Source: an uncultured Bacilli bacterium
Lineage (GTDB): Bacteria > Bacillota_I > Bacilli_A > RF39 > UBA660
DNA length: 64,000 bases
Assembly (NCBI GenBank): GCA_934089275.1
Contig: CAKOJJ010000001.1
Span: 49,918-113,917, forward strand
Direction of reading: 5' to 3'
Under the pieces are notes generated by a model that was not told where the DNA came from, ran no database searches, and saw only the letters and a list, made by a program, of their open reading frames with translations. The translations under genes and the position numbers were made by a program. How positions within the stretch are numbered: position 1 is the stretch's first letter; the number at the start of each line of letters is the position of its first letter. Of this stretch, positions 5,455 through 25,682 are shown one piece after another.

Positions 5455-5513
5455 AAACGTTGAACTAAATTATAAAAAAAGATCACTACAGAAGTGATTA
5501 ACTAAAACACAAA

Positions 5514-5883: not shown

Positions 5884-6435
5884 ATGAAAAAGATTATACT
5901 TAGTTTTTTATTTACAATAGTTGCATTATTTGGAATGACAGGATGTGAAAGTGATAGTGTTCAAAGTGGCACTAACGGAAATGGTTATAATAATTCTAGC
6001 AATGATAATAAAGAATCGGACGTTAAAATAACTGAACCAGCAAACTCATCCAAAACTCATAAACTTGGTGAAGCTTTTACTTTTGATGATTTAGAGCTTA
6101 CATTTGATACAACATATACTTTTGTAACATTAAAAAACAGATATTCTGAACATAATGGAAAGTCAGTAATTAAACTTGGTGTAACAGTAAAAAATCTTGC
6201 ATCAGAAAAAAATCATTTGAACATGTATTACTATGATTTATTTGGTTCACAAGGAACTGAATTAGATGGTGTTGCAGCTTATTTTGATAACACAATTGAT
6301 TATGCTGGAGATTTAAAATCTGGAGCATCATATAAAGCATATTTTTACATATTATATGATGGTGATGGAAAATATAGCATTGATTTTGACAATTATTCAG
6401 AAGAAACTTCAGTGGAATTCGATATCAAAAAATAA
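5884..6435 (+). CDS. lipoprotein
   Basis: Signal peptide with an LFGMTGC lipobox, strong RBS GGAGG, and an upstream extended -10 TGCTATAAT. Confidence 0.7.
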   Translation: MKKIILSFLFTIVALFGMTGCESDSVQSGTNGNGYNNSSNDNKESDVKITEPANSSKTHKLGEAFTFDDLELTFDTTYTFVTLKNRYSEHNGKSVIKLGVTVKNLASEKNHLNMYYYDLFGSQGTELDGVAAYFDNTIDYAGDLKSGASYKAYFYILYDGDGKYSIDFDNYSEETSVEFDIKK

Positions 6436-6437
6436 AA

Positions 6438-6470
6438 AGATAGTTATCCTTTCAAACTATCTTTTTTTTA
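6438..6470 (+). terminator. rho-independent terminator
   Basis: 8-bp stem agatagtt/aactatct followed by a T8 run. Confidence 0.8.
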
Positions 6471-6655
6471 TTTAATAAATCAAACTTACAAAATATACAA
6501 AAATGTTTTAAATGCACAATCTTTATATTGGATTTTATATATGTTATAATTTTGATGTCTAGTAGTGGGCTAATATTACGAAACGACTTTAGTATAGAAA
6601 TTTTAAACAAAAATAACAAATGAAAAAATAATTTAAGTAGGGCAAGAGGTGTTTT

Positions 6656-7675
6656 ATGTATTCAATAGAAGAATTGGCAAATTATATATCATTTGAAAAT
6701 ATTCCATCTTCATGGACTAATTGTTATGAAGATATAAAAAAAGAATATAATCGTAATTGGTTAGATAAGTATGATTTTAGCTTGATACTTTCTTATTATG
6801 AATTTGATGATAATTTTACAAAAAGATTTTATGATGAGTTAAAAATTATAAAACAAGATGATAAGTTAAATATAATTTGTTTTATAATGTATTACATTTT
6901 ATTTTTAGCCGATATTAAAAACTATTACAACATATGGTCATGGAGATCAACTAATAAGGTTTTAAAAAACAATGGTAGTTATATGATTCCTGTTGTATCT
7001 TTGTTATGTGGGTATGAATTTCATCTTAAAGCTATTAAAATCCGAAACTTTGACCAAGAACAAATAGGATTACAGAAATATAATATTAGGTTAACTTGTA
7101 CAAATGATAGAATTAATTATGGACTTGATGGAATAAGATTCAGTCAAATGATTTGGGGATCATTCTTCATGAAAGGATTCTTAATTCAAATCGGAAGATT
7201 ACAATATGAAATAGGGGTTAATAATTTTAACAAACTTGATAAATACTTTAAAGAAAAACACCAATACATTTATATACATATACCTAAAGGTAATGATTTA
7301 AGCGAAAAAGATGTTGATGAATCCATTTGTTCAGCTCAAAAGTACATAAAGAAATATTATCCAGAATTAAAAAATGAGAAACTAGCTTATTACACACAAT
7401 CATGGTTATTAAGCCCAGAAGTTAGAGAAGTATTACCAGCAAGTAGCAATATATTAAAATTTCAAAATAGATTTAATATTATAGAATACGAAGAAAATGA
7501 TTATGATTTCTTAAATTTTGTATTCAATAGTGGCATCGAAAAAGTTGATTATATTGATTTACCAGAAACAACAACTTTACAAAGAAAATTGAAAGCAAAA
7601 CTACTAAACGGAGACAAATTACATCTAGGATTAGGTGTTTTAAAAACTTCAGAGATTTCTTCTAAAAAAAATTAA
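6656..7675 (+). CDS. hypothetical protein
   Basis: 339-aa ORF; no recognisable motif. Confidence 0.5.
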   Translation: MYSIEELANYISFENIPSSWTNCYEDIKKEYNRNWLDKYDFSLILSYYEFDDNFTKRFYDELKIIKQDDKLNIICFIMYYILFLADIKNYYNIWSWRSTNKVLKNNGSYMIPVVSLLCGYEFHLKAIKIRNFDQEQIGLQKYNIRLTCTNDRINYGLDGIRFSQMIWGSFFMKGFLIQIGRLQYEIGVNNFNKLDKYFKEKHQYIYIHIPKGNDLSEKDVDESICSAQKYIKKYYPELKNEKLAYYTQSWLLSPEVREVLPASSNILKFQNRFNIIEYEENDYDFLNFVFNSGIEKVDYIDLPETTTLQRKLKAKLLNGDKLHLGLGVLKTSEISSKKN

Positions 7676-7722
7676 GATTGGATTTTCTTGCAAAACAAAA
7701 ACATATGTAGTAATATGTATTT

Positions 7723-7831
7723 AGAGATGCAATATTGCATACAATAAAAAAGGGAACATTCAGTTTTTGCTAGTTGAATGTCTACCTGAAAATTTTGGAG
7801 ACACTTATCTTTGCAGATGAGTGTCGTTTTT
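7723..7831 (+). ncRNA. candidate antisense sRNA (putative type I antitoxin), convergent with the small toxin-like ORF
   Basis: Sigma-A-like promoter TTGCAA-N17-TAATAT at 7688-7716. Plus-strand terminator hairpin gacacttatct/agatgagtgtc followed by T5 at 7799-7831. Overlaps the 3' end of the minus-strand small-ORF transcript. Confidence 0.35.
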
Positions 7832-7845
7832 ATTTATAGGTGATA

Positions 7846-7929
7846 CTACTTCAAAGTAATGAAGAGTAAGGCTATTAACAAAATGATTATAATGATCAAG
7901 CTTAAGATTAAGAAATCTTTCTTTCCCAT
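7846..7929 (-). CDS. 27-aa hydrophobic peptide MGKKDFLILSLIIIIILLIALLFITLK (type I toxin-like)
   Basis: Not in the ORF track because it is too short. RBS GAGAGGAGG sits upstream. Minus-strand promoter TTGCAA-N18-TATAAT at 8026-7997. Minus-strand terminator hairpin 7756-7781 with a U-run at 7745-7753. Single TM helix with a charged N-terminus. Confidence 0.45.
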   Translation of the reverse strand: MGKKDFLILSLIIIIILLIALLFITLK

Positions 7930-8068
7930 ATATATCAAAAACCTCCTCTCAATAAAGAATGGAGGTAGACACTCAACAACTGATGTTCCTAGTGAAATTA
8001 TAATAAATGTTCGATATTGCTTGCAAGAAAAAAACTAAGAAAATTGATTCTTAGTTTTAATTTCACAA

Positions 8069-8145
8069 TGGGGCGAAATGTGGGAATCGAACCCACGCAT
8101 ACCGGAGCCACAATCCGGCGTGTTAACCACTTCACCAATTTCGCC
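8069..8145 (-). tRNA. tRNA-His (anticodon GTG)
   Basis: Folds by hand into a cloverleaf. The acceptor GCGAAAT/ATTTCGC, anticodon stem CCGGA/TCCGG with loop TTGTGGC, T-arm GTGGG-TTCGATT-CCCAC, discriminator C73, and an encoded G-1 and CCA. Confidence 0.9.
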
Positions 8146-8236
8146 ATCGACATATCTAATTCTATCAAATAATTTTATGTATTGCAAGTCCTTTATTATA
8201 TTAATTTTAAATGATATAATTTTAAAGGTGGATCAT

Positions 8237-9166
8237 ATGGAAAACAAATACATTATTAAATCAAATAGTTTTACATTTTTAAACGATAAAATAAAAGAAC
8301 TTAGTAAAGACTATAAAGAGATTGAAAATTTTTCTTTAGTTGAAGATTCAATAGATGATGTAATAGAAAGCATGCAACATTTTGGACTTTTTTCTGAAAG
8401 TAAATGTATAATCGTAAAAAATGTGAAATACTTTGCTGGTAATTTTTCATATGAAGAAGAATGTAATAAACTAAAAGATGCATTATCTAATTTAGATAAT
8501 GAAACAATGGTAATTCTTATTAATGATGAAGTTTTAAAGTCCAAAAAGATTGTAAAAGATTTGATTTCTTTAGGAGTAAAATTTATTGATTTAACTGGTA
8601 ACAATGAAGATGATGTTGTAACTTATATAACTGATTATTTTAAAAAAGAGAATATAAATATAAATAGAGATGCTTTATTGGAAATATATAATAATAGTTC
8701 AAACAATATAGATATAACTATCAATGAAATTGAAAGACTTTCCAATTTGAGCAATAACATAACTCATGATTTAGTTGTTTCAAATACTCAAAAAAATGAA
8801 GAAGATGTAACATTCGCTTTTTCAAATGCGATAATAGCTAAAGATTTTAATTTAGGATTTAAATATTTAGATGTATTATTAAAAAACGGAAGTGAACCAA
8901 TTAATATAGTCGCACTTCTTGCTAGTAGTTTTACCAATATTTATATGGTAAAAAGTGCTTCTGCTGATGGTTTAAGTGATGAAGAAATTGCTAAACTATT
9001 TGGATATTCTAATCCAAAAAGAGTAGGTGTTTTAAAAAGAAACGGAAAAATTTATACTCTTGATCAACTAAAAGATATAATTGTTTCTTTATCCAATCTA
9101 GATTTAAAATTAAAAAGTGGTTATGACCAAATTTATGCATTAAAAGAGTTCTTACTTGATTTGTAA
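8237..9166 (+). CDS. holA: DNA polymerase III subunit delta
   Basis: HolA-like pattern (FGLFSESKCIIVKN...). Start moved to the ATG at 8237, which has the RBS AAAGGTGG; the 8078 start in the ORF track would overlap tRNA-His. Confidence 0.75.
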   Translation: MENKYIIKSNSFTFLNDKIKELSKDYKEIENFSLVEDSIDDVIESMQHFGLFSESKCIIVKNVKYFAGNFSYEEECNKLKDALSNLDNETMVILINDEVLKSKKIVKDLISLGVKFIDLTGNNEDDVVTYITDYFKKENININRDALLEIYNNSSNNIDITINEIERLSNLSNNITHDLVVSNTQKNEEDVTFAFSNAIIAKDFNLGFKYLDVLLKNGSEPINIVALLASSFTNIYMVKSASADGLSDEEIAKLFGYSNPKRVGVLKRNGKIYTLDQLKDIIVSLSNLDLKLKSGYDQIYALKEFLLDL

Positions 9167-10108
9167 GAACTCTTTAATTTTATCAGTATTTTTAAAATTT
9201 AATTTTGCAATATCTTTTAATTTTTCTATTCCATAATTATTAACGATCTTCACACCTGTTTGATCTACGATATCGCCAGCGCCCTTTGGAACTTTCATTT
9301 TTAATTGATCTTCCATTTTTTCCATTTCTTTAATAAAAATATATCTTGAAATAATACTTGAAACAGCAACACTTAGACACTTGTCTTCGGCATGAGTAGT
9401 AAATGTAATATTTGTAACCTTGTTCGGTGTTTCCTTAATATGCTCGTAATATTTAGTAGGAAAGCAAAATTGATCAACTACAATTTTATCATAGTTATAG
9501 TTTTTGCTTTTTAATGCAAACAAAACTTTATTATGTAATATAGCTTTTACTTTATTCATATTAGTAATTCCTAAACGATTATAATCGCTTGGAGTTAAGA
9601 TATATGTAATGTGAGGAAATTCTTTTATCAAAGTAGGTGCGATAGACATAATTTTTTCATCAGTAATTTTTTTTGAATCTCTTACTCCTAAATCATAAAG
9701 GGAAGATTTTCTACTTATATCAACAAAAGATGCTGTTACAATTATAGGACCAAAATAATCTCCAGTTCCAACTTCATCAGAACCGATAGTAGAAATATTT
9801 TTAAAACGAGTATCATTTAGTTCTTCATCTTTTTTGTCTTTTTTATCTTGCTTATCCTTTAATTCTTTTTCTAAATCACGATTATTGTTGATTCTTTCTT
9901 CTTCCATCCAATAACTTGCTTCAATATCAGCACCTATACCTTGAAACATCAATTTTCCAGATTCATATAATGTGATAACACAGTCATAATCTTTAACTTG
10001 AAACACTGAATAGGGTGGATGATTTGGAAGGGCGCGATCTTTATAAAAGTCTATTACTTTATTCTTTAAATTATCTGATATCTTAAATACGATAGTTTGT
10101 TGTTTCAT
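9152..10108 (-). CDS. rnhC: ribonuclease HIII
   Basis: N-terminal DUF3378-like domain plus the RNase HII/HIII catalytic signature GSDEVGTGDYFGPI. Confidence 0.8.
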   Translation of the reverse strand: MKQQTIVFKISDNLKNKVIDFYKDRALPNHPPYSVFQVKDYDCVITLYESGKLMFQGIGADIEASYWMEEERINNNRDLEKELKDKQDKKDKKDEELNDTRFKNISTIGSDEVGTGDYFGPIIVTASFVDISRKSSLYDLGVRDSKKITDEKIMSIAPTLIKEFPHITYILTPSDYNRLGITNMNKVKAILHNKVLFALKSKNYNYDKIVVDQFCFPTKYYEHIKETPNKVTNITFTTHAEDKCLSVAVSSIISRYIFIKEMEKMEDQLKMKVPKGAGDIVDQTGVKIVNNYGIEKLKDIAKLNFKNTDKIKEFLQIK

Positions 10109-10227
10109 GAAATCACCTGATTAAATTTTACCATAAGTAATTGCTTTTTTAAACAAAATTATATTATAATTAAAGTACTTAGAATATTAAAGAATTTTCA
10201 AAGTATAATAGTAGTGAGGGATTAAAA

Positions 10228-10965
10228 ATGTCTATATTGGATATATTAATAATAATTATTCTTGTATTTGGAATTTATCGCGGTTTCAAATATGGATTTG
10301 TAAGAAGTGCGGTATCATTAGTTGGTTCTTTATTTGTTTTTGTTGGAGCATATTATTTAAAGAATCCATTAAGTGTACTTATGTATGAAAACTTACCATT
10401 TCATACGTTTGGTGGAATATTTTCAGGAATTGCAGCTTTAAATATTATTGTTTATGAAGCCATATCATATATAATATGTTTAATTGTTTTATCGGCAATT
10501 TTGAAGATTGTAATTAAGCTTACTGGTATTATTGATAAATTGATTTCTGCGACAATAATACTTGCTTTACCAAGCAAATTAATAGGTGCATTTTTAAAAG
10601 TGTTGGAGTATTATATTTATACATTCATTGTTTTATTTGTATTAGCTTCTATTCCATTCTTTACTCCATATTTTAAAGAATCTACAATTGCCCCAGCAAT
10701 TCTTTCTAAAACACCAATTATATCTAAGATGACCAACAATGTTTATAATTCTATTATGGATATATATGATGTATGTTTAAAATATGATGGAGTATCCGAT
10801 AAAACTAAAGGTAACGAAGAATCGATAAAAATACTTTTAAAATATGATGTTATAAGTACAGAAAGCGTAAGAAAACTTAACGAAAAAGGTAAATTAAAAA
10901 TTGATAATATTGATGAAATATTAAGCGAGAAAGAAAGGAATGATAAAAATGATAAAATATCTTAA
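10228..10965 (+). CDS. cvpA: CvpA family membrane protein
   Basis: N-terminal ILDILIIIILVFGIYRGFKYGF is typical of colicin V production protein CvpA. Confidence 0.7.
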   Translation: MSILDILIIIILVFGIYRGFKYGFVRSAVSLVGSLFVFVGAYYLKNPLSVLMYENLPFHTFGGIFSGIAALNIIVYEAISYIICLIVLSAILKIVIKLTGIIDKLISATIILALPSKLIGAFLKVLEYYIYTFIVLFVLASIPFFTPYFKESTIAPAILSKTPIISKMTNNVYNSIMDIYDVCLKYDGVSDKTKGNEESIKILLKYDVISTESVRKLNEKGKLKIDNIDEILSEKERNDKNDKIS

Positions 10966-11239
10966 AAATGAAGAAGATTTCTTAGATCTAACTGCTAAAG
11001 GATGTGTATTAGTAGACTTCTTTGCAGAATGGTGTGGTCCATGTAAAATTATGGGAGAAATACTTGAAACGGTAGATGCCGACATCTTAAAAGTTAATAC
11101 TGATGAATTTCCTAATTTAGCTCAAAAATTTGGAGTAATGAGTATTCCGACTTTAATTCTATTTAAAGATGGCAGTGAAACAAATAAGATGATTGGTTTA
11201 CAATCCAAAGAAGAAATCTTAAACTTCTTAAATAAGTAA
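10940..11239 (+). CDS. trxA: thioredoxin
   Basis: WCGPC active site; 99 aa. Confidence 0.9.
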   Translation: MIKMIKYLKNEEDFLDLTAKGCVLVDFFAEWCGPCKIMGEILETVDADILKVNTDEFPNLAQKFGVMSIPTLILFKDGSETNKMIGLQSKEEILNFLNK

Positions 11240-11273
11240 TGTCAAAAAAGTGTCAAAATTTGACATTTTTTTA
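11240..11273 (+). terminator. rho-independent terminator
   Basis: tgtcaaa...tttgaca hairpin followed by a T7 run. Confidence 0.65.
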
Positions 11274-11308
11274 TTTTCTTATGCTATAATTAGCAATAGG
11301 TGAATAGA

Positions 11309-13813
11309 ATGAAGAAAGTAGAAGAAGTTATAGGAAAAATTCACGAGTTTGCCCTTGAAGACATTATGGGACTACGTTTTAGTAGATACTCAAAGTATAT
11401 TATTCAAGATAGAGCAATACCAGATGTAAGAGATGGATTAAAACCTGTTCAAAGAAGAATAATCTTTGCAATGTATCGTGATAAAAATACTTATGACAAA
11501 CAATTCAAAAAATGTGCTAACGCAGTTGGTAATGTCATGGGTAAATATCATCCACATGGTGATTCATCGATATATGATGCACTTGTTCGTATGGGACAAG
11601 ACTGGAAGCAAAATCACATTTTAGTAGAAGTATCTGGAAATAGAGGTTCAATGGATGGAGATCCACCAGCAGCAATGCGTTATACTGAAGCTCGTCTTGC
11701 TAAAATTAGCGAAGAACTTTTAAAAGATATTGATAAAAATACCGTAAAAATGGCTCCAAACTATTCAGATACTTTGATGGAACCAACTGTACTTCCAGCT
11801 AAATTTCCAAATCTTTTAGTAAACGGAAGTAATGGTATATCGGCTGGTTATGCAACAAATATTCCACCACATAATTTATGTGAGGTAATAGATGCAGTTA
11901 TCAAAAGAATTGACTCTCCAAATTGTAAATTTGAAACGATTTTAGATATAGTTAAAGGACCAGATTTTCCAACTGGCGGAATAATTGAAGGAACAGACGG
12001 TATAAAACAAGCTTTTGAAACTGGTCGAGGTAAAATAGTTATCTCAAGTAAATATGAATTTGTTCAAGAAAAAGGTAAAGATAAAATCGTTATAAGTGAA
12101 ATTCCTTTTGAAGTAAATAAACAACAACTTGTTAAAAAGATTGATGATATTAGAATTGATAATAAAGTTCAAGGTATTGCTGAAGTAAGAGATGAATCTG
12201 ATAAAGATGCTAGTGTTAGAATTGTAATAGATTTAAAATCAGGTGCCAACAAAGACCTTGTAATGAATTATTTATTAAAAAATACTGATTGCCAATGCAA
12301 TTATACATATAACATGGTAACTATTGTTAACCGTCGTCCAAAACTTCTTGGTATTGTTGGTATAATTGATGCTTATATTGCTCATTTAAAAGAAATCATA
12401 AAATTAAGAAGTGAATTCGATTTAAACGTTGCTTTAAAAGAAGTACATTACACAGAAGGACTTGTTAAAGCAATATCCATTTTAGATGAAGTTATTGCAG
12501 TTATCAGAGCAAGTAAAAATAAAGGGGATGCTGAGGCAAATTTAGTAAAAGAATTTGGCTTTAGTGAAGCTCAAGCGGAAAAAATCGTAATGTTACAACT
12601 ATATAAGCTTACTAATACAGATATCTTAGAACTACAAAACAAACTAGAAAGTTTAAATAAAATAATTGCTGGTTTAAGAGAAATTCTTGCAAATGAAGAA
12701 AAATTATCTCTTGTAGCTAAAGAAGAACTTCGTAAGATTAAACGTGAATACGGAGTTCCAAGAAAAACAGAAATTAGAGAAACTGCTAAAGAGATCAATA
12801 TTTCTGCGGAGGATTTAATTATTAAAGAAAGTGTTATGATAGTTTTAACTCATGATGGTTATATTAAAAAAGTACCAATGAAATCATATACTTCAGCTAA
12901 TGGTGATGAAACTGGTTTAAAACCTGGAGATTATGCATTAAACATTTTTGAAACAAGCACAATAAACAAAATGGCTATACTAACTAAAAAAGGAAATTAC
13001 ATTTATGTTCCAGTCAACGATATTCCTTGGTGTAAGTGGAAAGATTTAGGAAAACATATATCTAATTTAGTAACTATTTCTCCAGACGATTCGGTATTAA
13101 ATTCATTTATTGTAAACGAAAATGTCAGTGATGATAACTTGTTAATCGTTACTAAGAGTGGAATGGTTAAACGCACAAATATATCTGATTTATTTGTAAG
13201 TAGATATACGAAGTTATATACATATATTAAACTTAAAGATGACGATGAAGTTAAATTTGTTGATTATGAAAAAGAAAACACGATGATTGTTACTAAAAGT
13301 GGTTACTATATTTCTTACAAAACTACTGAAATTCCTTTATCAAGTGCTAAATCAAGTGGAGTTAAAGGAATAAACTTAAAAGAAGATGAAGTTGTTGCTG
13401 GTTTGACATATGATGATACTGATGAATACTTAAATATTTTTACAAATCAAAAAACAGCTAAACGTGTTAAATTAAATGAACTTGATCAATTATCTCGTGC
13501 TAAAAGAGGAAGTATGGTAATTAAAAAGGTAAAAACAACAAACTATGAAATTGTTTCCGCTTTAATTACCCAAACAAAAGACCAAATCGGATTATCGATG
13601 TTGGAAGATGTTGGCGAACTTAAAAATACAGATATTCCAATAATGGATCTTGCATCAACTGGTTCATCTATTGCTAAAAAGAAATTTATTTCAGCCTTTG
13701 TTTTTGCTGATATCAAGAAAGTATATTTTGATGATACAAAGAAAAAAGTAGTAAAAACTGAAAAACAAGAGAAACAAGAAAAAATGGAATTTATTGAAGA
13801 TTTCAAAATATAG
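11309..13813 (+). CDS. parC: DNA topoisomerase IV subunit A
   Basis: N-terminus RFSRYSKYIIQDRAIPDVRDGLKPVQRRI is ParC-like and no GyrA box (QRRGGKG) is present. Start moved to the ATG at 11309, which has a GGTGA RBS. Confidence 0.8.
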   Translation: MKKVEEVIGKIHEFALEDIMGLRFSRYSKYIIQDRAIPDVRDGLKPVQRRIIFAMYRDKNTYDKQFKKCANAVGNVMGKYHPHGDSSIYDALVRMGQDWKQNHILVEVSGNRGSMDGDPPAAMRYTEARLAKISEELLKDIDKNTVKMAPNYSDTLMEPTVLPAKFPNLLVNGSNGISAGYATNIPPHNLCEVIDAVIKRIDSPNCKFETILDIVKGPDFPTGGIIEGTDGIKQAFETGRGKIVISSKYEFVQEKGKDKIVISEIPFEVNKQQLVKKIDDIRIDNKVQGIAEVRDESDKDASVRIVIDLKSGANKDLVMNYLLKNTDCQCNYTYNMVTIVNRRPKLLGIVGIIDAYIAHLKEIIKLRSEFDLNVALKEVHYTEGLVKAISILDEVIAVIRASKNKGDAEANLVKEFGFSEAQAEKIVMLQLYKLTNTDILELQNKLESLNKIIAGLREILANEEKLSLVAKEELRKIKREYGVPRKTEIRETAKEINISAEDLIIKESVMIVLTHDGYIKKVPMKSYTSANGDETGLKPGDYALNIFETSTINKMAILTKKGNYIYVPVNDIPWCKWKDLGKHISNLVTISPDDSVLNSFIVNENVSDDNLLIVTKSGMVKRTNISDLFVSRYTKLYTYIKLKDDDEVKFVDYEKENTMIVTKSGYYISYKTTEIPLSSAKSSGVKGINLKEDEVVAGLTYDDTDEYLNIFTNQKTAKRVKLNELDQLSRAKRGSMVIKKVKTTNYEIVSALITQTKDQIGLSMLEDVGELKNTDIPIMDLASTGSSIAKKKFISAFVFADIKKVYFDDTKKKVVKTEKQEKQEKMEFIEDFKI

Positions 13814-13860
13814 TAATTTAAACCACTTAGTATAAATATAATATATTAGGTGGTTTTTCT

Positions 13861-14208
13861 ATGGATAAAAAAAGTGAATTTAAAAATTTTTTAGGTAAAC
13901 ATCCAGAAATACTGAAATTTATTAAAAACAAAGAAATGACTTTTCAAGATTTTTATGAAATATATGATATATATGGTGAAGAAAATGATGTATGGAGCAA
14001 ATATTTTAAAGAAGACGTTGAATCATCTTCCACTAGAGATAAAATAAGTGAGTTAACATCGATTTTTAAAAATGTCAACATGGACAATATTGAACACCAT
14101 GTAAATAACGCCCAAAAAGCCATCAGTATTATTCAAGAATTAACTAAGAAAAGTCCAGAAGTATTAACTAAAGTTGAAAGACCAATTAGTAAATTCTTTG
14201 GAGATTAA
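13861..14208 (+). CDS. hypothetical protein
   Basis: 115-aa ORF. Confidence 0.4.
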   Translation: MDKKSEFKNFLGKHPEILKFIKNKEMTFQDFYEIYDIYGEENDVWSKYFKEDVESSSTRDKISELTSIFKNVNMDNIEHHVNNAQKAISIIQELTKKSPEVLTKVERPISKFFGD

Positions 14209-14210
14209 AT

Positions 14211-14429
14211 ATGAGTATAGATGTGGTGTTAAAGCTTGAAGCCGAACAAGCGATGCATGAATATTTAATGAATCATTCATATCTTTATAAAGAATTAAAT
14301 CGTGATCCCGATTATTTTGAAACGTTCTTAAAAGAATATAAAAAGTACAAAAGAGAAGAAATGGCTAAAAAAGTAAGCGATGCTGTAGAAAACATTGAAA
14401 CCATTTCAAACATTATGAGCGTCATGTAA
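14211..14429 (+). CDS. hypothetical protein
   Basis: 72-aa ORF tightly linked to the previous gene. Confidence 0.4.
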   Translation: MSIDVVLKLEAEQAMHEYLMNHSYLYKELNRDPDYFETFLKEYKKYKREEMAKKVSDAVENIETISNIMSVM

Positions 14430-14541
14430 AATTTGCATGATGCTTTATTTTGTGATAAAATAACACACCAAAAGAAGGGGAATGAATACTATCTAAAAAG
14501 CGATAGTTTATGCATACTTAAGAATTAAAAAGGGTGAAACA

Positions 14542-15822
14542 ATGATTAAGAAAGTTATTATATTAAACAAAAAAGGTAATATTGATAGAAGTTTAGTTGT
14601 TTTTGACAGTGATTCATGTTGTGAAAAAAATCCTGAAAACACAAAAAAAATTATAACTAAATTTATGGAAGAAAAAGGAAAAAGTTACGAAGCATTGTGT
14701 TCTGATAAGGACATTATAGTTTTTAATAAAAAACAAAATTATGAACTAGCAAAAGAAGGTATAAAAAAATACATCAAATATACAGATAAAAAATTCGCTT
14801 TTATAAGTTTAACTGTTTTATTCCAATTGATAATACAAATCACTACTAGACAATTTCATTACTTTGACACTTTTCTTTTAGATATTCAAACTTTTATATT
14901 ATTGGGAATGAATGTGGTTTCTAATGGTGTTTTATTAATTTTGAATACTTTTTTAAATAAGACCCATAAGAAATATAAATTAGGCAAAAACAAACTTGGA
15001 AATCGTTTATTAGCATTATCTATTGGTCTTTCTTTATATTCGTTTATTAATTATTGTGTTCCAGTAGAAACTCTTCCATATTATTTATCTATCAAATCTA
15101 CAAATATTGAAGATTCTTATGAAAGTCGTGAGGAACAAGTTGATAAAATATTTACTGATTTATCAAATTCTCCGTATTTAGAAGATGATGAAATTGAAAT
15201 AATTAATAATTTAAAAGAATATATAGAAGAAAATCCATACATATCATTAAACGACTTGTACAAGACTCTTATGACTTTGCAAGTTAACGATAAGACTTAT
15301 GTTGGTAAAGAAGCTATAGGTGCTGTCTATGACCCTGATTTTAATACAATTTCGTATTATGGATCTCCAAGAGTGAGTAAAGAATACATTTTGGAACACG
15401 AATTTGTTCATTCAACCGGAAATTTAGAAAATCTCATTTTAAACGAAGGATATACTTCTATATTAGTTTCAGGAATAGCAGATACAGATAGAAAATTAGA
15501 TTATTATGATGAATATAGATGGTGTACAGAACAAGTAATTAAATTGGTAGGAGATGACGTTGTTCTTAAAGCATATTCTGAAGATAATCAAGCATTTTTA
15601 GACCAACAACTTGCTAGATGCTTTAAAAGCCCAGAAAACGTTCAAGAATTATATGATTTATTTGAAAGATATTCTATGCCTAATAGTAAAGTTGAAAAAG
15701 ATGTTGTAGAAGCTTTTATTTATGATAACATAACAGACGATGAAAAAGACTATTTAATTTATGTTGAGTCAATGAGTCAAACGTGTGACTTTGAACAAGA
15801 AGAGTTGCTTTTAACAAAGTAA
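14542..15822 (+). CDS. membrane protein with C-terminal HExxH (putative zinc metallopeptidase-like) domain
   Basis: Central TM helices and a C-terminal EHEFVHSTGN (HExxH) motif. Confidence 0.45.
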   Translation: MIKKVIILNKKGNIDRSLVVFDSDSCCEKNPENTKKIITKFMEEKGKSYEALCSDKDIIVFNKKQNYELAKEGIKKYIKYTDKKFAFISLTVLFQLIIQITTRQFHYFDTFLLDIQTFILLGMNVVSNGVLLILNTFLNKTHKKYKLGKNKLGNRLLALSIGLSLYSFINYCVPVETLPYYLSIKSTNIEDSYESREEQVDKIFTDLSNSPYLEDDEIEIINNLKEYIEENPYISLNDLYKTLMTLQVNDKTYVGKEAIGAVYDPDFNTISYYGSPRVSKEYILEHEFVHSTGNLENLILNEGYTSILVSGIADTDRKLDYYDEYRWCTEQVIKLVGDDVVLKAYSEDNQAFLDQQLARCFKSPENVQELYDLFERYSMPNSKVEKDVVEAFIYDNITDDEKDYLIYVESMSQTCDFEQEELLLTK

Positions 15823-15885
15823 CTTTTTTCTTGAAAAAAAATAATATCTACTCTATAATTAATAATAGAATACGAGGGTGATAAA

Positions 15886-17580
15886 GTGAAAAAGAAAAAT
15901 GGTTTTACTTTGGTAGAATTACTTGCTGTTATCGTTGTTTTAGCACTTATTATGATAGTAGTCGTGCCAAGTGTTATGAAATCAATCGGAAGCGCAAGAA
16001 AGGAATCGTTTTACTTATATGCTCAAAGTTTACAAAGTAAAGCGACTGCAAAATATACTCAAGATTTAGATTTAAACAAAAACAATACTGAATGTGCTGT
16101 ATATGATATTTCTAAAGATTTGGATATTGGTAATACCGGAAAATATGAAGGCTGGGTTAAAATTAATCGTGTAGCTGTATCTTCTGGAAATCTAGTTGCT
16201 ACTGCTTCGATTAAAAACGATAGTTTGAGTGGAGTATACTATTGTGTTACCAGTTCAGGATCATGTACTCCAAACGAAACATATTATTATGAAGAAGGAA
16301 AAACTGAAGTAAATATCAATAAAACAATAGGTGCCAACGACAAGCTTTGCTATAACTATAAATATGCTGACGCTAGTAAAACACTTAGAACAAGCAATAC
16401 AACATGTATAAGTGGGAAAGATACTGGTATAAAAGACACATATCGATATGATGTATATATTACTTTAAAGGATTCTAATTATAAAGTTGAAAATGTATTA
16501 TTTAATAAAGACATGCCAATGGAAACTTTTTATGATGAAATGCAATCCAAAGGAGATTTAAGTATATCAAGTTTAAGTTGTTCATCTAGTGGAAGTGAAA
16601 TAAAAGGAACAACAACAGTTAAAACAACAAAAGTTACTAGTCAATCGACTACAACTGATGGAACAACGAAGGTAACTACAAGTCAACAAATCGATGATAA
16701 AACTAGTCAAGTTACAACAACTACAACAACTACAAAACAAACTATTGAAGCTGAAAAGACTACAACAACAACTCGTCAAACTTATGTTATACCTTCTACA
16801 ACAATAGAACCAGAAAAAACAGCTTTACTTTTAAATACTTTAAATGTATCTGGTTATGACATATCTTTCAGTCCAATGAAATTTAGTTATGAATTAACAG
16901 TTCCAAACGGAACAGCATCACTATCTATTTCAGCAACATCTACTGATCCAAATACTGTCGTTACAGTAATAGGTGCTGACGGATTAACGATTGGATCTAA
17001 TATAATAAGAATCAATTTATCAAATCCAAATGAAAGTAAAGAAGCTAACTATTATATTCAAGTAAGAAGGTTAGATGAACTTGGAAAAATTGTAGAAGTT
17101 ACAAGAACAAATGACGCTCCTATATATAATAGAGAAGAAGGACTTCCAGACCCAACGCTTCCATCAAGTGATGCATCTCTTTCAAGCTTAACTGTTTCAG
17201 GATATATGCTAGAATTTGATAAAAACAAATACGATTATGAACTTACAATAGTAGATGCAGATACACTACCAATAAGATACGAAACAACATCTTCTAAAGC
17301 TCGTGCTTATATGGAAGGCAACGAATCTTTAAAAGACGGCTCAAAAATTAGCATATATGTTACAAGCGAAAATGGATATTACAAAAAAGCTTACACTATA
17401 ACAGTTCACACTAAAAAAGAAACAAATATAATGAGTTCATTCTTAAAATTCCTAATTGCTGGTTTAGGAGTAGTACTTCTTGCTTTACTAGTAATAATAA
17501 GTGCTAATAAAAGAACAAGTAGAATAGTAAGAAACAAAAACGATATTGTTGATACCACTAATGATAATAAAAACATTTAA
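15886..17580 (+). CDS. prepilin-type N-terminal cleavage/methylation domain protein with Thr-rich linker, cadherin-like beta-sandwich repeats and C-terminal TM anchor
   Basis: GTG start with the RBS GAGGGTG. N-terminus MKKKNG|FTLVELLAVIVVLALIM has the class III signal with E5. Also carries TTTTTTKQT low-complexity stretches, LSxLxVSGY...Y.Y modules and a C-terminal hydrophobic helix plus basic tail. Confidence 0.7.
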   Translation: MKKKNGFTLVELLAVIVVLALIMIVVVPSVMKSIGSARKESFYLYAQSLQSKATAKYTQDLDLNKNNTECAVYDISKDLDIGNTGKYEGWVKINRVAVSSGNLVATASIKNDSLSGVYYCVTSSGSCTPNETYYYEEGKTEVNINKTIGANDKLCYNYKYADASKTLRTSNTTCISGKDTGIKDTYRYDVYITLKDSNYKVENVLFNKDMPMETFYDEMQSKGDLSISSLSCSSSGSEIKGTTTVKTTKVTSQSTTTDGTTKVTTSQQIDDKTSQVTTTTTTTKQTIEAEKTTTTTRQTYVIPSTTIEPEKTALLLNTLNVSGYDISFSPMKFSYELTVPNGTASLSISATSTDPNTVVTVIGADGLTIGSNIIRINLSNPNESKEANYYIQVRRLDELGKIVEVTRTNDAPIYNREEGLPDPTLPSSDASLSSLTVSGYMLEFDKNKYDYELTIVDADTLPIRYETTSSKARAYMEGNESLKDGSKISIYVTSENGYYKKAYTITVHTKKETNIMSSFLKFLIAGLGVVLLALLVIISANKRTSRIVRNKNDIVDTTNDNKNI

Positions 17581-17586
17581 AAGGTA

Positions 17587-17615
17587 TTGACTATAAAATA
17601 GATAAAATATATAAT
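17587..17615 (+). promoter_or_regulatory. sigma-A type promoter for second pilin gene
   Basis: Consensus TTGACT-N17-TATAAT. Confidence 0.6.
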
Positions 17616-17641
17616 TAACTTAAGATAGGAAGAGGATATTT

Positions 17642-18160
17642 ATGAAAAAGAAAAATGGTTTTACTTTAGTTGAGTTACTTGCTGTTATAGTAATTTTGGC
17701 TATTATAATGATAATTGCTATACCAACAGTGCTTGAAACAATGGCAAGTGCAAGAAGAAGTTCATTTGCTCTATATATTGAAAAAATTGTAAAAGATACA
17801 ACTACTCAATATGTTTATGATTCTAATGGAGGAGCAATTGCTGGTGCTGGAAGATATGTTTATAATATCGAAAAAGATTTAGGTTATACATCTACAGGTG
17901 ATTACAAAGGATATGTAGTTGTAAATGCTGAAGACGTTGATAATCCACATTATATCGTTTATCTTTGGGATGCTAACTATATGACTCTAAGTTGGGATGT
18001 AACAGATCAAAAAATGCCAAAAGCAGATAATAAAACAGCAATTCAATCTTTAGACAAAACTCAAGTAGCTGGATTAAACGAATACGTTGCTTGTAAAACT
18101 GGTTCTTCAGCAACTGTAACTAATTGCTATAATCGCCAAGGATACAAAATTGTTGAATAA
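17642..18160 (+). CDS. type IV pilin / competence pseudopilin-like protein
   Basis: N-terminus MKKKNG|FTLVELLAVIVILAIIMIIAIP. At 172 aa it is of typical major-pilin size. Confidence 0.75.
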   Translation: MKKKNGFTLVELLAVIVILAIIMIIAIPTVLETMASARRSSFALYIEKIVKDTTTQYVYDSNGGAIAGAGRYVYNIEKDLGYTSTGDYKGYVVVNAEDVDNPHYIVYLWDANYMTLSWDVTDQKMPKADNKTAIQSLDKTQVAGLNEYVACKTGSSATVTNCYNRQGYKIVE

Positions 18161-18163
18161 AAG

Positions 18164-18188
18164 AGATACTTAGTATCTTTTTTTTTGT
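18164..18188 (+). terminator. rho-independent terminator
   Basis: agatac/gtatct hairpin followed by a T9 run. Confidence 0.7.
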
Positions 18189-18218
18189 TCTCATGATATA
18201 ATTTTTATGGTGGTAAAA

Positions 18219-19121
18219 ATGTTAATAATCGGAAGTCATGTATCATATAAAAACTCAACTCAATTGCTTGGTTCAGTTGAAGATGCAGTGTCTTATGGAG
18301 CAAATGCTTTTATGTTTTATACAGGAGCTCCACAAAATACTCAAAGAGGAGAGATAAATGATTTAGTAACTTATGAAGCAATGAAAAAAATGAAAGAAAA
18401 TGGCATTATGCTTGAAAACGTTGTATGCCATGCTCCATATATTGTTAATCTTGCAAATAATATTGATCCAGAAAAGTATGAATTTGCTAAGAATTTCTTA
18501 AGACAAGAAATAGAAAGATGTATTAAATTAGGAGTTAAAAGAATGGTTCTTCACCCAGGAAGTGCAACTAAACTTGATAGAACCGAAGCTCTAAATAACA
18601 TAATAAGAGGATTAAATTCTATTCTTTGTCCTGATGATAATATTGTAATTTTACTAGAAACAATGGCTGGTAAAGGAACAGAATTAGGAGTAAATTTGGA
18701 AGAATTAAAATATATAATCGACAATATTAAATTACAAGATAAGATAGGTGTTTGCCTTGATACTTGTCATTTAAGTGATTCGGGTGTAGATATCAGCAAA
18801 TTCGATGAATATTTAGACGAATTCGATAAACAAATAGGTATTGATAAAATAGGATGTGTTCATTTAAATGATTCCAAGAATCCAATTGGTGCTAGAAAAG
18901 ACCGTCATGAAAATTTAGGATATGGAACTATTGGATTTGATACATTAATTGATGTAGCTTATAACAAACGTCTAGAGAACATACCAAAAATGCTAGAAAC
19001 TCCTTTTGTCGATCGTGAATATTCACCATACAAATTTGAAATAGAAGAAGTAAAAAACAAAAAATTTAATCATAACTTATACGCCGATATCGTTACGTAT
19101 TATAGAGGATCAAATGAATAG
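18219..19121 (+). CDS. nfo: deoxyribonuclease IV (endonuclease IV)
   Basis: TIM-barrel Nfo pattern (HAPYIVNLA...HPG...LETMAG...CLDTCH...HLNDS). Start moved to the ATG at 18219, which follows GGTGG. Confidence 0.85.
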   Translation: MLIIGSHVSYKNSTQLLGSVEDAVSYGANAFMFYTGAPQNTQRGEINDLVTYEAMKKMKENGIMLENVVCHAPYIVNLANNIDPEKYEFAKNFLRQEIERCIKLGVKRMVLHPGSATKLDRTEALNNIIRGLNSILCPDDNIVILLETMAGKGTELGVNLEELKYIIDNIKLQDKIGVCLDTCHLSDSGVDISKFDEYLDEFDKQIGIDKIGCVHLNDSKNPIGARKDRHENLGYGTIGFDTLIDVAYNKRLENIPKMLETPFVDREYSPYKFEIEEVKNKKFNHNLYADIVTYYRGSNE

Positions 19122-20268
19122 CTATAAAAGATGTAAACATCCTCAAATTAATTCCAAATTAGAAGAATATTTAAATCCAGATTATGTTTATATTCCGCTT
19201 CCAGACAATTTCAATATTCAATTAACTGATGAAAAAAAAGTTATGAAAAATGATATATTATTTGAAAAAAACGGAAAATCAACTTTTAGTCCAATAAGTG
19301 GAGTTATAAAAAGCATAAGTAATGATATAAAGATAAATAATCACGATGTAAAATGTTTGGTAATTGAAAACAACTTTAAAGAGGATATTAAACAAAATAA
19401 GTGGGCAACAAAATATATAAATAAATACTCTAAACAAGAGTTATTGGATTTATTAAAAAAATATATGCCGGAGTTGCGTAAATTCAATGATGAAAAAACA
19501 ATTTTAATAAATGGTATAGATAAAGAAGAAACCGAAAAGAATTATTCTTTTATAATCAATAATAAAAGTGATAAACTTTTAGAAACTGCTGATGCTTTAT
19601 CGAATATTCTTGAAATTGATAATGTAATATTTGCTATAAACAATAAAGATTCCAACAATGTTATTAATTTAACAAGCAATATTGGAACATACCCAAATAT
19701 TAGATTAAAACTTCTCCCAGATGTATATCCAATTGGCTTTAAGAATATTTTAACGAAAAATGTATTGTCAAAAAAAGAAATAGAAAATGGAGTTATTTAC
19801 TTAACCGTAGAAGATTTAATAAACATATATAATGTTTTAAAAAGAAGAAAACCAATAACAGAAAAATATGTAACTATTGGTGGAAATTGTATAAAAGAAT
19901 CCATAGTTGTAAATACCAAAATAGGTGTTAAAATAGCTGATTTAATAAAAAGTACTTGTGAAATAATTAATGAAGATTATTATGTTATTGTAAATGGTCT
20001 TATTTCTGGCATAACTTTAGAATCTTTAAATTCAATAATCACTTTAAGTACAAGAAGTATATTTTTAAATACCCTTGATAAGACCAGTGAAAAAGAATGC
20101 ATTAATTGTGGACTTTGTACATTAAAATGTCCAGTTGGTTTGAATCCTAAATATATAAGGGAACATAAAAAAGCAGATAAAAGTAAATGCATTAATTGTG
20201 GCTTATGTTCATATATTTGTCCAAGTAAAATCAATTTTAAGGAGTGTTTAAACAATCATGAAAAATAA
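19114..20268 (+). CDS. RnfC-like protein with two 4Fe-4S ferredoxin motifs
   Basis: N-terminal RnfC-type barrel-sandwich region, ILINGID matching the LIINGAECEP region, and C-terminal CINCGLCTLKCP and CINCGLCSYICP motifs. Confidence 0.5.
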   Translation: MNSYKRCKHPQINSKLEEYLNPDYVYIPLPDNFNIQLTDEKKVMKNDILFEKNGKSTFSPISGVIKSISNDIKINNHDVKCLVIENNFKEDIKQNKWATKYINKYSKQELLDLLKKYMPELRKFNDEKTILINGIDKEETEKNYSFIINNKSDKLLETADALSNILEIDNVIFAINNKDSNNVINLTSNIGTYPNIRLKLLPDVYPIGFKNILTKNVLSKKEIENGVIYLTVEDLINIYNVLKRRKPITEKYVTIGGNCIKESIVVNTKIGVKIADLIKSTCEIINEDYYVIVNGLISGITLESLNSIITLSTRSIFLNTLDKTSEKECINCGLCTLKCPVGLNPKYIREHKKADKSKCINCGLCSYICPSKINFKECLNNHEK

Positions 20269-21166
20269 TGTGTATGTGCGTAGCAATAAATCGATAAAAT
20301 CTATAACATTAACTAAATTGTTGTTTTTGCTTCCTCTAATAATTTATGGTTTCTATAAAAATGGTATTTATTTGTATCAAGAACACTATATCTCCTTTAT
20401 CGAAATATTTAGACCTCTTATTTATGTTTCGATAGGAGCATTAATAGGTATATTTGTAAATGTTTTTTACGAAAAAATTATTAAGAAAAATAACGATAAT
20501 TTAGATTCAATTATATTTTCTTCGTTTCATTTAGAATACGGAGTAATTATAGGATGCCTAGTATCTATCAACACAAGCGTTCTTATTTATACTTTAGTAT
20601 TGCTAACGATTTTTATGATATCAAAATTTTTAAATAATCGAGTAAATATTATGTGTTTTACTTTAATAATAATATATCTAATAAGTAAAGTAATGGGTAA
20701 CGCTTCTTTCATGAATTCCTATGAAATGAGCAAAACATTCTCTTATGAATTTATGGATTATTTAATCGGAAGATTTCCTGGTGGAGTAGCAAGTACACAT
20801 GTAATATTAATTTGTTTAGGATTATTTGGGTTGTATATGACGAATAATATAAAAATAGATATAAGTCTTTCAAGTTTAGTAACATTATTTTTACTATTCG
20901 GAATATATTCATTGATAACAAATAGTAATTTTACTAATTTTTTCTTCGCTAACAACATTGTAATGCTCATGAGTTACGTAGCAACAGACACTAAAACTAG
21001 TTGTTATACAAGGAAAGGTATGATTGTTTTTGGAGTTTTAATTGGCTTACTGACTTTCATAAACTATTTTATAGAACCAGTTCTAGCTCCTTTAGTTAGT
21101 ATATTATTTGTAAGTTTATTCAATAATTTCATAGACAGAAAAGCAAACTCATTGCAAAAACAATAA
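20258..21166 (+). CDS. polytopic membrane protein, possibly RnfD/NqrB-like
   Basis: About 8 predicted TM helices and coupled to the RnfC-like gene. The similarity to RnfD is weak. Confidence 0.3.
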   Translation: MKNNVYVRSNKSIKSITLTKLLFLLPLIIYGFYKNGIYLYQEHYISFIEIFRPLIYVSIGALIGIFVNVFYEKIIKKNNDNLDSIIFSSFHLEYGVIIGCLVSINTSVLIYTLVLLTIFMISKFLNNRVNIMCFTLIIIYLISKVMGNASFMNSYEMSKTFSYEFMDYLIGRFPGGVASTHVILICLGLFGLYMTNNIKIDISLSSLVTLFLLFGIYSLITNSNFTNFFFANNIVMLMSYVATDTKTSCYTRKGMIVFGVLIGLLTFINYFIEPVLAPLVSILFVSLFNNFIDRKANSLQKQ

Positions 21167-24561: not shown

Positions 24562-25682
24562 GATAATTTGTCAAATCAAGTGCAACATTCATATAAATAC
24601 TCATTAAATAATTCTTGTGGTGTTTTATAATTAATGCATTTTCTTGGTCTATTATTTAGAAGTTTAAGTACATTTTGAACTTCTTTTTCATCTGTCTTAG
24701 ATAAATCCATTTGCTTTGGATAAAACTCTCTTAACAATCCATTTGAATTTTCATTTGTTCCCTTTTGCCATGCGCAATATGGATCCGCAAAATACATATT
24801 TGTTCCTAATTCTTCTTCGATTCGTTTCCAACCAGCGAATTCTTTTCCTCGATCACATGTTATTGTTTTAACTGCTTCTTTTGGCAAATCTTTTAATAAT
24901 TCTATTATTGCATTAGTAACAGTTTCTTCCTTTCTATTAGGTATCCATTTTACTAAATATAATCTTGTTTTTCTTTCTGCTAAAGAAACAAAACAGTATT
25001 TACTTTTCAAAGTACAATTATTTAACTTCCCTGAAACAACTGTGTCAGCTTCCCAATGTCCAAATGTATTCCTCTTGTATACTTCCTTAGGTCTCTTTTT
25101 GATTGTTTTACCTAAATTAAATCGTCCTCTTGTTTCGGCAGGCCTTTTAAATTTTCCTTTTCTTCTTAAATGTTCAATTTTTATTTTTGGAATGTACCCT
25201 AAGTGAATCCATCTATATATTGTGGATATGGAAGGAAAATTAGCTGGTTTATTATCATCACTTCTATTAGTTATTTGATCTGGAGACCAATGTAATTCTA
25301 TTTTAGTTTTTATATATTCTATTGATGCATTAGTTGCTATTATTGACCTATGACATTTAGTTCTTCTTTCTTTATACTTTCTATTAGCATGAGTAGGTAC
25401 ATATCTTGTTACTGAATTATTTATTCCTGTTTTATAAGAATTTCTTTTTAATTCTCTAGAAATTGTAGATACATTTCTATTTAAATGTTTAGCCATTTCT
25501 CTTAAACTCATATTCATTTCTTTAAATTTACTTATACAAGCTCGTTCTTCTATGGTAAGATGTATATAGTTCATATTTATTACTCCTTAATGTTTGATTA
25601 GACACCAACATTATATCATGAGTAATAATATGAACTTTTTTATTGAGATAATCATATGTTGCACTTGTTATTATAAATTATC
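24562..25682 (-). mobile_element. IS30-family insertion sequence (about 1.12 kb)
   Basis: Imperfect 27-bp terminal inverted repeats: gataatttgtcaaatcaagtgcaacat at 24562-24588, and its reverse complement at 25656-25682, with about 21 of 27 matching. Flanked by 'atga' on both sides (24558-24561 and 25683-25686). Encloses a single intact transposase ORF. Confidence 0.7.
24576..25574 (-). CDS. IS30 family transposase
   Basis: N-terminal HTH (LSLREMAKHLNRNVSTISRELKRN). DDE motifs: HWEADTV, TCDRGKEF and a distal glutamate. 332 aa. Confidence 0.85.
   Translation of the reverse strand: MNYIHLTIEERACISKFKEMNMSLREMAKHLNRNVSTISRELKRNSYKTGINNSVTRYVPTHANRKYKERRTKCHRSIIATNASIEYIKTKIELHWSPDQITNRSDDNKPANFPSISTIYRWIHLGYIPKIKIEHLRRKGKFKRPAETRGRFNLGKTIKKRPKEVYKRNTFGHWEADTVVSGKLNNCTLKSKYCFVSLAERKTRLYLVKWIPNRKEETVTNAIIELLKDLPKEAVKTITCDRGKEFAGWKRIEEELGTNMYFADPYCAWQKGTNENSNGLLREFYPKQMDLSKTDEKEVQNVLKLLNNRPRKCINYKTPQELFNEYLYECCT

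Follow-up and report, generated by a model that had tools for sequence, protein, structure and literature searches.

The means by which type IV filaments are secured at the membrane, and by which the length of the short pseudopili of competence and secretion systems is limited, are still poorly understood, especially in single-membrane bacteria. It has been established that Glu5 of a pilin forms a pair with the N-terminal amine of the next subunit up and that these filaments grow from tip to base, with a capping subunit at the tip that has no Glu5 (PMC10191384). Modular pilins, such as PilB and PilC of Streptococcus sanguinis, in which a pilin module is joined by a linker to domains that are not pilus-specific, have been surveyed by Raynaud et al. 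2021 (PMC8179133). Dataset S1 of that work already contains the combination IPR012902-IPR025883 (N_methyl plus Cadherin-like), in four proteins with one Cadherin-like domain and in two proteins with two, as well as the combination of N_methyl with an InlB B-repeat (IPR013378), and the word 'transmembrane' does not occur in the paper (PMC8179133). The present analysis concerns two adjacent genes, here called A and B, in a stretch of 64,000 nucleotides (64 kb) from an uncultured Bacilli bacterium (contig CAKOJJ010000001.1 of assembly GCA_934089275.1), and this whole stretch is referred to as the window. The two are type IV pilin genes and old, conserved paralogues of each other, and the first additionally carries Cadherin-like domains and a predicted C-terminal membrane anchor.

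Both genes lie where a sequence-only reading of this DNA had placed two prepilin-type open reading frames (ORFs). The structure of A was modelled with AlphaFold2 (AF2) on a 50-sequence alignment of its family, which gave a mean predicted local distance difference test (pLDDT) score of 72.7, and hydropathy was calculated with our own script as the Kyte-Doolittle mean over 19 residues. The features of the pair are as follows (aa, amino acids; TM, transmembrane).

15831..15859, plus strand: promoter-like site of gene A, TTGAAA-N17-TATAAT, an 11/12 match to the consensus, in the intergenic region between ylbE/the 426-aa gene and gene A
15886..17580, plus strand: gene A, GTG start, encoding a 564-aa modular prepilin with a predicted C-terminal membrane anchor; Pfam N_methyl and twice Cadherin-like
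15886..16074, plus strand: class III signal (aa 1-11) and alpha1 helix (aa 9-63) of A; AF2 helix 9-63, TIGR02532
16075..16590, plus strand: beta-rich pilin head of A (aa 64-235) with six conserved Cys; AF2 strands within aa 70-206, pLDDT about 80-88
16591..16815, plus strand: Thr/Ser-rich disordered linker of A (aa 236-310); pLDDT <50 for aa 243-304
16816..17079, plus strand: Cadherin-like beta-sandwich 1 of A (aa 311-398); best PF12733 stretch aa 318-395, AF2 strands within aa 316-395
17080..17169, plus strand: fixed-length spacer of A (aa 399-428) with a conserved GLPDPTL motif
17170..17418, plus strand: Cadherin-like beta-sandwich 2 of A (aa 429-511); second PF12733 stretch, AF2 strands within aa 432-510
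17449..17505, plus strand: core of the predicted C-terminal TM helix of A (aa 522-540, FLIAGLGVVLLALLVIISA); hydropathy 2.9, AF2 helix 515-549
17506..17577, plus strand: basic juxtamembrane patch and predicted cytoplasmic tail of A (aa 541-564, NKRTSRIVRNK...), from the count of Lys and Arg after the TM helix
17587..17615, plus strand: promoter-like site of gene B, TTGACT-N17-TATAAT, an 11/12 match to the consensus
17642..18160, plus strand: gene B, ATG start, encoding a 172-aa canonical type IV pilin and candidate major subunit; N_methyl
18155..18190, plus strand: terminator-like hairpin with U-run after B; minimum free energy -10.4 kcal/mol, z -2.84 against shuffles

The mosaic that had been read from the letters of A, in which a pilin module is followed by a Thr-rich linker, then by a pair of Cadherin-like domains and finally by a TM helix with a basic tail at the C-terminus, is recovered by Pfam, AF2 and hydropathy taken together. 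N_methyl (PF07963) matches aa 1-26 of A with 27.2 bits (cutoff 21.2) and Cadherin-like (PF12733) matches two stretches with 33.2 bits (cutoff 24.2), whereas B exceeds the Pfam cutoff for N_methyl only, with 34.5 bits. The generic prepilin domain TIGR02532 is the sole NCBIfam family above its cutoff for either protein (21.5 bits against 16.3 in A), and together with the leader and cleavage motif MKKKNG-FTLVE (cleavage at the hyphen), which is the same in both proteins and forms part of their common N-terminus MKKKNGFTLVELLAVIV, it supports the class III (prepilin) signal that had been proposed for both genes. Among the ComG and Gsp equivalog models of NCBIfam the best scores on A and B remained far below cutoff (ComGC 31.9 against 75, GspG 28.5 against 88.85) and spanned only the N-terminal 50 residues or so; the TadE/Tad Pfam families (PF07811, PF13400) matched neither protein, and no vWA match was found in A.

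Following the 55-residue alpha1 helix of A (aa 9-63), AF2 places a beta-rich head at aa 70-230, disorder at aa 243-304, sandwiches at aa 316-395 and 432-510, which by Foldseek match cadherin/immunoglobulin tandems, and a terminal helix at aa 515-549. The linker region is rich in threonine (29 Thr within aa 231-305) and, being variable and disordered, separates the head from the first sandwich, while the second sandwich ends about 10 residues before the TM helix. Two hydrophobic segments of comparable strength are found, namely the N-terminal pilin helix (aa 4-37, mean 3.4) and aa 513-543 (mean 2.9), and the latter, followed by NKRTSRIVRNK, is predicted to be a TM helix by hydropathy, AF2 and the basic patch, in line with the original suggestion. 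Because this patch follows the positive-inside pattern, the last helix is taken to be oriented with its C-terminus inwards. The leader of A would thus be cytoplasmic, its head, linker and Cadherin-like domains would lie outside, and the basic tail would return to the cytoplasm, so that A would be fixed in the membrane by either end prior to any assembly.

Gene B, on the other hand, has the appearance of an ordinary pilin, as had been supposed. Its AF2 model (pLDDT 90.2) consists of an alpha1 helix (aa 9-63), four antiparallel strands (aa 71-119) and a C-terminal loop that is predicted to be closed by the invariant Cys151 and Cys162. A profile of B searched against the sequences of the PDB matches the alpha1 helix of solved pilins, best that of S. 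sanguinis PilE1 (8pfb, E 1.6e-8), and the similarity stops there, the pilin head domains having no detectable sequence or Foldseek match to solved pilins. B is a standard pilin and likely to be the main filament subunit. Folding of the RNA between A and B revealed no stable structure and no terminator separating the two genes, and B is thus probably transcribed from the promoter of A as well as from its own. The sequence-only reading had credited B with its own consensus promoter; the TTGACT-N17-TATAAT site is present, but such matches are not enriched in the window (29 found versus 24.5 expected in DNA of 28% GC), A has an equally good one, and the site is to be read as a consensus match only. 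The hairpin after B, whose stem is AT-rich, was missed by a consensus scan for terminators. A promoter-like site of its own and a terminator behind it, with none between the genes, would lead to more B than A, as expected of a major and a minor subunit, and the better conservation of B (67% identity to the same metagenome-assembled genome (MAG), versus 41% for A) is a further hint at this stoichiometry.

The first 90 nucleotides of A and B are 77.8% identical (70/90, ungapped), close to the value of about 80% that had been taken to point to a signal-peptide module recently duplicated or subjected to gene conversion. This interpretation was rejected. The homology is not confined to the signal module and reaches about aa 94 (48% identity, E 2e-17); among the 28 codons from Gly(-1) onwards, 19 specify the same amino acid in both genes, and 10 of these 19 are identical codons where 9.3 are expected from the codon usage of the genome. 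Furthermore, a comparison of paralogues across six related genomes revealed no within-genome excess of A-B nucleotide identity (0.734 within versus 0.733 between genomes), while the B orthologues of the same six genomes are 0.814 identical to each other. With synonymous sites saturated in this manner, the A-B similarity is explained by amino-acid constraint and AT-biased codon usage acting on an old paralogue pair. The broader suspicion that A might be an assembly artefact, a pseudogene or a product of recent duplication or conversion, for which the 77.8% identity is the only argument, is at the same time made extremely improbable, given that the ORF is intact with the same architecture in dozens of independent assemblies, that every module is under purifying selection, and that the codon and cross-genome comparisons leave no trace of recent exchange; a pseudogene or artefact was accordingly rejected.

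The distribution of A was determined by searching 5.8 billion proteins, in which its architecture (N_methyl plus Cadherin-like, in some cases with an InlB B-repeat and, in longer homologues, with Flg_new) was found in about 84 clusters at 90% identity; the few named homologues come from MAGs labelled 'Bacilli bacterium' and 'Erysipelotrichales bacterium', and the C-terminal hydrophobic helix with its basic patch is found in essentially all members of full length. An exhaustive profile search of 1.84 billion representatives at 50% identity, which was used only to count full-length members since giant multi-Cadherin proteins dominated its highest ranks, added a handful more and brought the total to about 30 clusters, all with both anchors. 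Conservation was assessed in alignments of 50 A-type and 50 B-type sequences, whose most distant members are about 33% and 45% identical to A and B of the window, respectively. Gly6 (-1), Phe7 (+1), Thr8 (+2) and Glu11 (+5) are invariant in both alignments. In the head of A, C120 and C127 are invariant and conservation reaches at least 90% for C70, C155, C174 and C232, which is compatible with three probable disulfides. The linker between the head and the first sandwich varies from 33 to 240 aa and consists of about 45% Thr, Ser and Pro; the stretch between the sandwiches, in contrast, is typically about 36 residues long (34-38 in 47/50 members, maximum 49) and contains the invariant P421 and D422 and the at least 90% conserved G419 and P423. 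The TM helix is present in all 50 members, with L527 and L531 at least 90% conserved, and is followed in every one of them by 3-7 Lys or Arg within 12 residues, after which the tail (5-102 aa) is unconserved. An LPXTG-like motif near the TM helix was found in none of the 50 sequences, nor was any NCBIfam sorting-signal match, and tails as long as 102 aa do not resemble those of cleaved sorting signals; the possibility that A is a substrate of sortase or of another sorting system was rejected on these grounds.

The ratio of non-synonymous to synonymous substitution rates (dN/dS), calculated against the 82% identical A orthologue of the related locus L001, indicates purifying selection on every module of A. 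The overall value is 0.14, with 0.04 for alpha1, 0.09 for the head, 0.49 for the linker, 0.17 for the first sandwich, 0.08 for the spacer, 0.10 for the second sandwich, 0.16 for the TM helix and 0.20 for the tail. B is constrained to the same degree (0.05) as ParC, the housekeeping baseline (0.06).

About 133 pilin-like ORFs were surveyed in 86 related loci. Many of them are large modular pilins of 300-1909 aa, and a TM end was found in the A orthologues only, which bears out the earlier remark that such an anchor is unusual. Giant ones with canonical GFTLVE N-termini comprise 1909, 1701, 1419 and 1030 aa (L061 2915..8644 and 9962..15067; L055 9980..14239; L065 12138..15230), and other homologues (P0085-P0119) carry DUF285/BspA-type leucine-rich-repeat domains. 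It had been suggested that A is adhesin-like, and one may consider that A is displayed at the tip or along the shaft of a filament, like PilB and PilC of S. sanguinis, its C-terminal segment being either extracted from the membrane or removed by cleavage. Modular pilins are indeed widespread, the N_methyl/Cadherin-like combination has already been catalogued (PMC8179133), and the MAGs related to the window are rich in large modular pilins. On the other hand, none of the other approximately 125 pilin-like ORFs of the related loci ends in a TM helix, the TM helix and basic patch of A are conserved and under selection, and neither a cleavage nor a sorting motif accompanies them. Of the adhesin-like description, the Cadherin-like domains themselves stand; what is put in doubt is their display, since they adjoin the C-terminal TM helix, with the linker between them and the head, and domains that could be adhesive are thus set beside the membrane, the opposite of what distal display of an adhesin would demand. 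A displayed adhesin is therefore considered improbable.

The reading preferred here is that A would serve as the basal anchor or length limiter of a short filament made mainly of B and thereby as a covalent tether between filament and membrane. From the sequence features described above, combined with established pilin biology, this is given a probability of roughly 40%. A prepilin peptidase encoded elsewhere would cleave A after Gly6, and the pilin module, in which the invariant Glu(+5) is kept, would dock beneath B subunits already assembled into a type IV filament. Since the C-terminus would stay in the bilayer, A would become a covalent tether from filament to membrane, and only the flexible linker could pay out, setting how far the filament may still extend. 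At about 0.35 nm per residue, linkers of 33-240 residues would reach roughly 12-84 nm, and the 83 residues available here about 29 nm, which is on the scale of the thickness of a Gram-positive wall. Apart from the needs of pilin processing and assembly there is hardly a reason for a charged Glu to sit within a membrane helix, and as caps lack Glu5 while A keeps it, A is not built like a cap and fits docking beneath other subunits. The conserved C-terminal anchor, the position of the Cadherin-like domains beside the membrane, the constant pairing of A with B, the hints at stoichiometry and the machinery genes of relatives are further arguments in its favour. Several points weigh against this proposal. 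Many minor pilins of tip complexes also keep Glu5, which weakens the argument for docking below; we know of no precedent for the extraction of a pilin whose other end is embedded in the membrane; the predicted template modelling score of the AF2 model of A is low (0.33), so that the arrangement of its domains is not predicted; and no assembly machinery, as discussed below, was found in the surroundings of A in the window or in the other A-bearing loci. A more far-reaching proposal, according to which tethered pilins constitute a new functional class whose N-terminal module is polymerised while the C-terminus stays in the membrane, acting in a monoderm bacterium both as an anchor and as a molecular ruler for a short, wall-spanning filament whose extension the variable linker would limit, is more tentative and, on balance, still unlikely.

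The same genome encodes a second protein with the C-terminal design of A. The gene at 34601..36175 on the plus strand specifies 524 aa with a classical Sec-type signal peptide and no pilin module; its two Cadherin-like domains (PF12733, 53.7 bits) are combined with a TM helix at the C-terminus and a cytoplasmic tail that is acidic. It has no tblastn match to the C-terminal half of A at E < 1e-5 and is thus not a close paralogue of it, but it demonstrates the kind of module that is fused in A. That such a module functions without a pilus is one reason for considering that A never polymerises, its prepilin N-terminus being only a signal-anchor cleaved by the peptidase, and that the protein is a bitopic scaffold, perhaps at a pilus base in a role such as has been proposed for TadG or for PilN/O-type proteins of the cytoplasmic-membrane sub-complex, or a membrane-proximal protein binding the wall or a ligand. 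The latter would be comparable to the binding proteins of the archaeal bindosome, which carry class III signals. That both ends of A are predicted to be embedded in the membrane, with the Cadherin-like domains close to it, and that no machinery adjoins the gene, would fit equally well, and in TadG a protein of the cytoplasmic-membrane sub-complex (PMC10191384) has been hypothesised to anchor a pilus (PMC4858521). It is difficult, however, to reconcile such a role with a complete pilin head that is conserved (dN/dS 0.09), contains three probable disulfides and belongs to a protein homologous to B up to aa 94, or with the invariance of Glu(+5), and the absence of a TadE/Tad Pfam match speaks against a TadG-like protein in particular. 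A non-polymerising A is accordingly regarded as rather unlikely, yet as the most probable of the alternatives.

The tether proposal for A requires an assembly machine, and none is encoded nearby, as had been noted. Pfam searches for T2SSE, T2SSF, Peptidase_A24 and PilM/N/O detected nothing among the window ORFs of at least 100 aa, tblastn of E. coli HofB, HofC, GspE, GspF and GspO against the window gave no match, and the called genes 10 kb beyond each window end (about 84 kb in total) include no pilus machinery. In eight other A-bearing loci, too, no ATPase, platform or peptidase gene was found within 10 kb on either side of A. Related genomes place such genes in various settings. In L063 (an uncultured Erysipelotrichia MAG, 1654..6206) a 397-aa PilB-like ATPase is divergently adjacent to five N_methyl/GFTLVE pilin genes, which together with one 171-aa ORF without a Pfam match form a row ending at nfo, i.e. 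in the slot that holds A and B in the window; a search for homologues of this ATPase, however, gave a flat plateau at 63-66% identity and no match that could be tied to an A-bearing genome. Tad-like operons with two TadE-like genes, a TadZ-like ParA/MinD ATPase, a 440-aa T2SSE ATPase and two T2SSF genes adjoin modular pilins of the N_methyl (GFTLVE) rather than the Flp type in L082 (11080..16081), L044 (5666..9969) and L038 (14187..18759), the small genes of L082 having TadE/Tad Pfam matches. Orphan PilB-type T2SSE ATPases, with no platform or pilin gene beside them, occur amid housekeeping genes in L093 (10001..11566, next to holA) and in L096-L105 (near mutS, fmt and priA), and in one assembly (JAQVKM01) the pilin genes are on another contig (L069). 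As machinery is scattered in these relatives, its non-adjacency is normal for the group. Vertically inherited comG genes and widespread TadA have been described in reduced Erysipelotrichales (PMC12786226).

It could nevertheless be argued that this lineage has lost its pilus machinery and that A and B persist as relics, i.e. as membrane proteins with a new, pilus-independent role. The empty 84 kb would be in agreement with this, as would holA, which in L093 stands beside a PilB-type ATPase and in the window does not. The residues needed for processing and assembly are, on the contrary, invariant in both families, B is as constrained as ParC, and the relatives, as described above, scatter their machinery genes around the genome, so that a relic must be judged quite improbable, more so than a displayed adhesin.

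In all readable A-bearing loci (L001, L003, L004/L009, L005, L007, L008 and L094) the gene order is parC-(ylbD-ylbE)-A-B-nfo-rnfC-like-rnfD-like-TM2-ftsW-...-frr, with A adjoining B in every one of them, and the slot is a core-genome position amid genes for replication, cell wall and translation. The host lineage consists of uncultured, small-genome gut Bacilli resembling Erysipelotrichales, with about 28% GC (27.8% in the window) and related complete chromosomes of about 1.5 Mb. In a wider circle of relatives, with ParC 52-64% identical, 1-4 small pilins of 145-217 aa occupy the position between parC/ylbDE and nfo in about 20 loci, while A is found only where ParC is at least 74% identical; A therefore arose in the inner clade by extension of a slot pilin.

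Further observations concern the neighbourhood of the pair and the remainder of the window. Upstream of A, at 14542..15822 (plus strand), lies a gene for a 426-aa protein that matches no family and contains three hydrophobic segments as well as an HEFVH (HExxH-like) motif; this gene sits between ylbE and A only in the window and in its closest relative L001, where three tandem paralogues are present (5887..9936), and no other A-bearing locus has it in the slot. Downstream of nfo, the rnfC-like and rnfD-like genes (19114..21166, plus strand) are conserved in all A-bearing loci without other rnf subunits adjoining, and an IS30-like transposase gene (HTH_38 and rve; 24576..25574, minus strand) is inserted between frr and the downstream genes. 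An Rfam scan of the window detected only a tRNA gene, which at 8072..8144 (minus strand, 66 bits) overlaps the start of the longest holA ORF (8078..9166), whose true start is probably downstream; in the closely related contig L091 of the same sample holA is called at 309 aa. Three ORFs of 762, 765 and 484 aa (54172..56460, 59636..61933 and 61949..63403, all plus strand) match no Pfam family at E <= 1e-5.

If the tether proposal is correct, the covalent attachment of a pilin to the membrane would offer a simple answer to the question of how a filament is anchored and limited in length, and the concept of the modular pilin, so far one of tip display, would come to include basal anchoring. Were A not to polymerise, it would provide a bacterial prepilin signal on a membrane protein that forms no filament, a situation mainly known from archaea so far. 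For pilus biologists the relevance is limited by the unproven assembly machine and the uncultured host lineage. The family occurs in abundant, genome-reduced gut Bacilli with few surface systems, and it therefore probably matters for life in the gut.

Compared with known systems, A resembles the modular pilins in linking an N-terminal pilin module (IPR012902/PF07963) to domains that are not pilus-specific, and on its sequence features it falls within the definitions of both a type IV pilin and a modular pilin. Modular pilins, however, end with the grafted module and have been modelled with it at the tip, whereas A has a conserved C-terminal TM helix and tail, with its grafted domains predicted to be membrane-proximal; in its predicted topology A thus departs from their implicit feature, a polypeptide that ends outside the cell. 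With major pilins of monoderm bacteria such as S. sanguinis PilE1 (8pfb), both B and the first 60 or so residues of A have in common the leader, Phe1/Glu5 and alpha1, and B is in addition laid out alike in its AF2 model (alpha1, four strands and disulfide loop), the similarity in sequence being limited to alpha1 for both proteins. TadG and similar proteins of the cytoplasmic-membrane sub-complex are, like A, pilin-like at the N-terminus and for a large part extracytoplasmic, and they have been hypothesised to hold the filament at the membrane; A differs in lacking TadE/Tad and vWA Pfam matches and in that its pilin head is complete and its cleavage site canonical, and a C-terminal TM helix is not known to us from TadG. 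By the family models and motifs considered above, A and B are not ComG, Gsp or Tad equivalogs and A is not a sortase substrate. The Sec-dependent Cadherin-like proteins (34601..36175 in the window, and the 483-aa P0098 type) have, like A, two sandwiches, a TM helix and a cytoplasmic tail, but a classical signal peptide where A has a pilin module, and they are not close paralogues of its C-terminal half. In the sortase-assembled pili of Gram-positive bacteria a basal (terminator) pilin is incorporated last, which ends elongation and fixes the fibre in the envelope; with A there would be a functional analogy only, as chemistry and machinery (sortase, LPXTG) are unrelated and A has no LPXTG motif. 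A literature search for pilins with a C-terminal TM anchor returned none, which is not proof of absence, the nearest findings being separate non-pilin proteins in archaeal loci and the hypothesis of TadG as an anchor (PMC4858521). In conclusion, the fusion of a pilin with Cadherin-like domains was known, and what is new is a small, conserved and hitherto undescribed family of modular pilins with a predicted C-terminal membrane anchor, paired with a canonical pilin.

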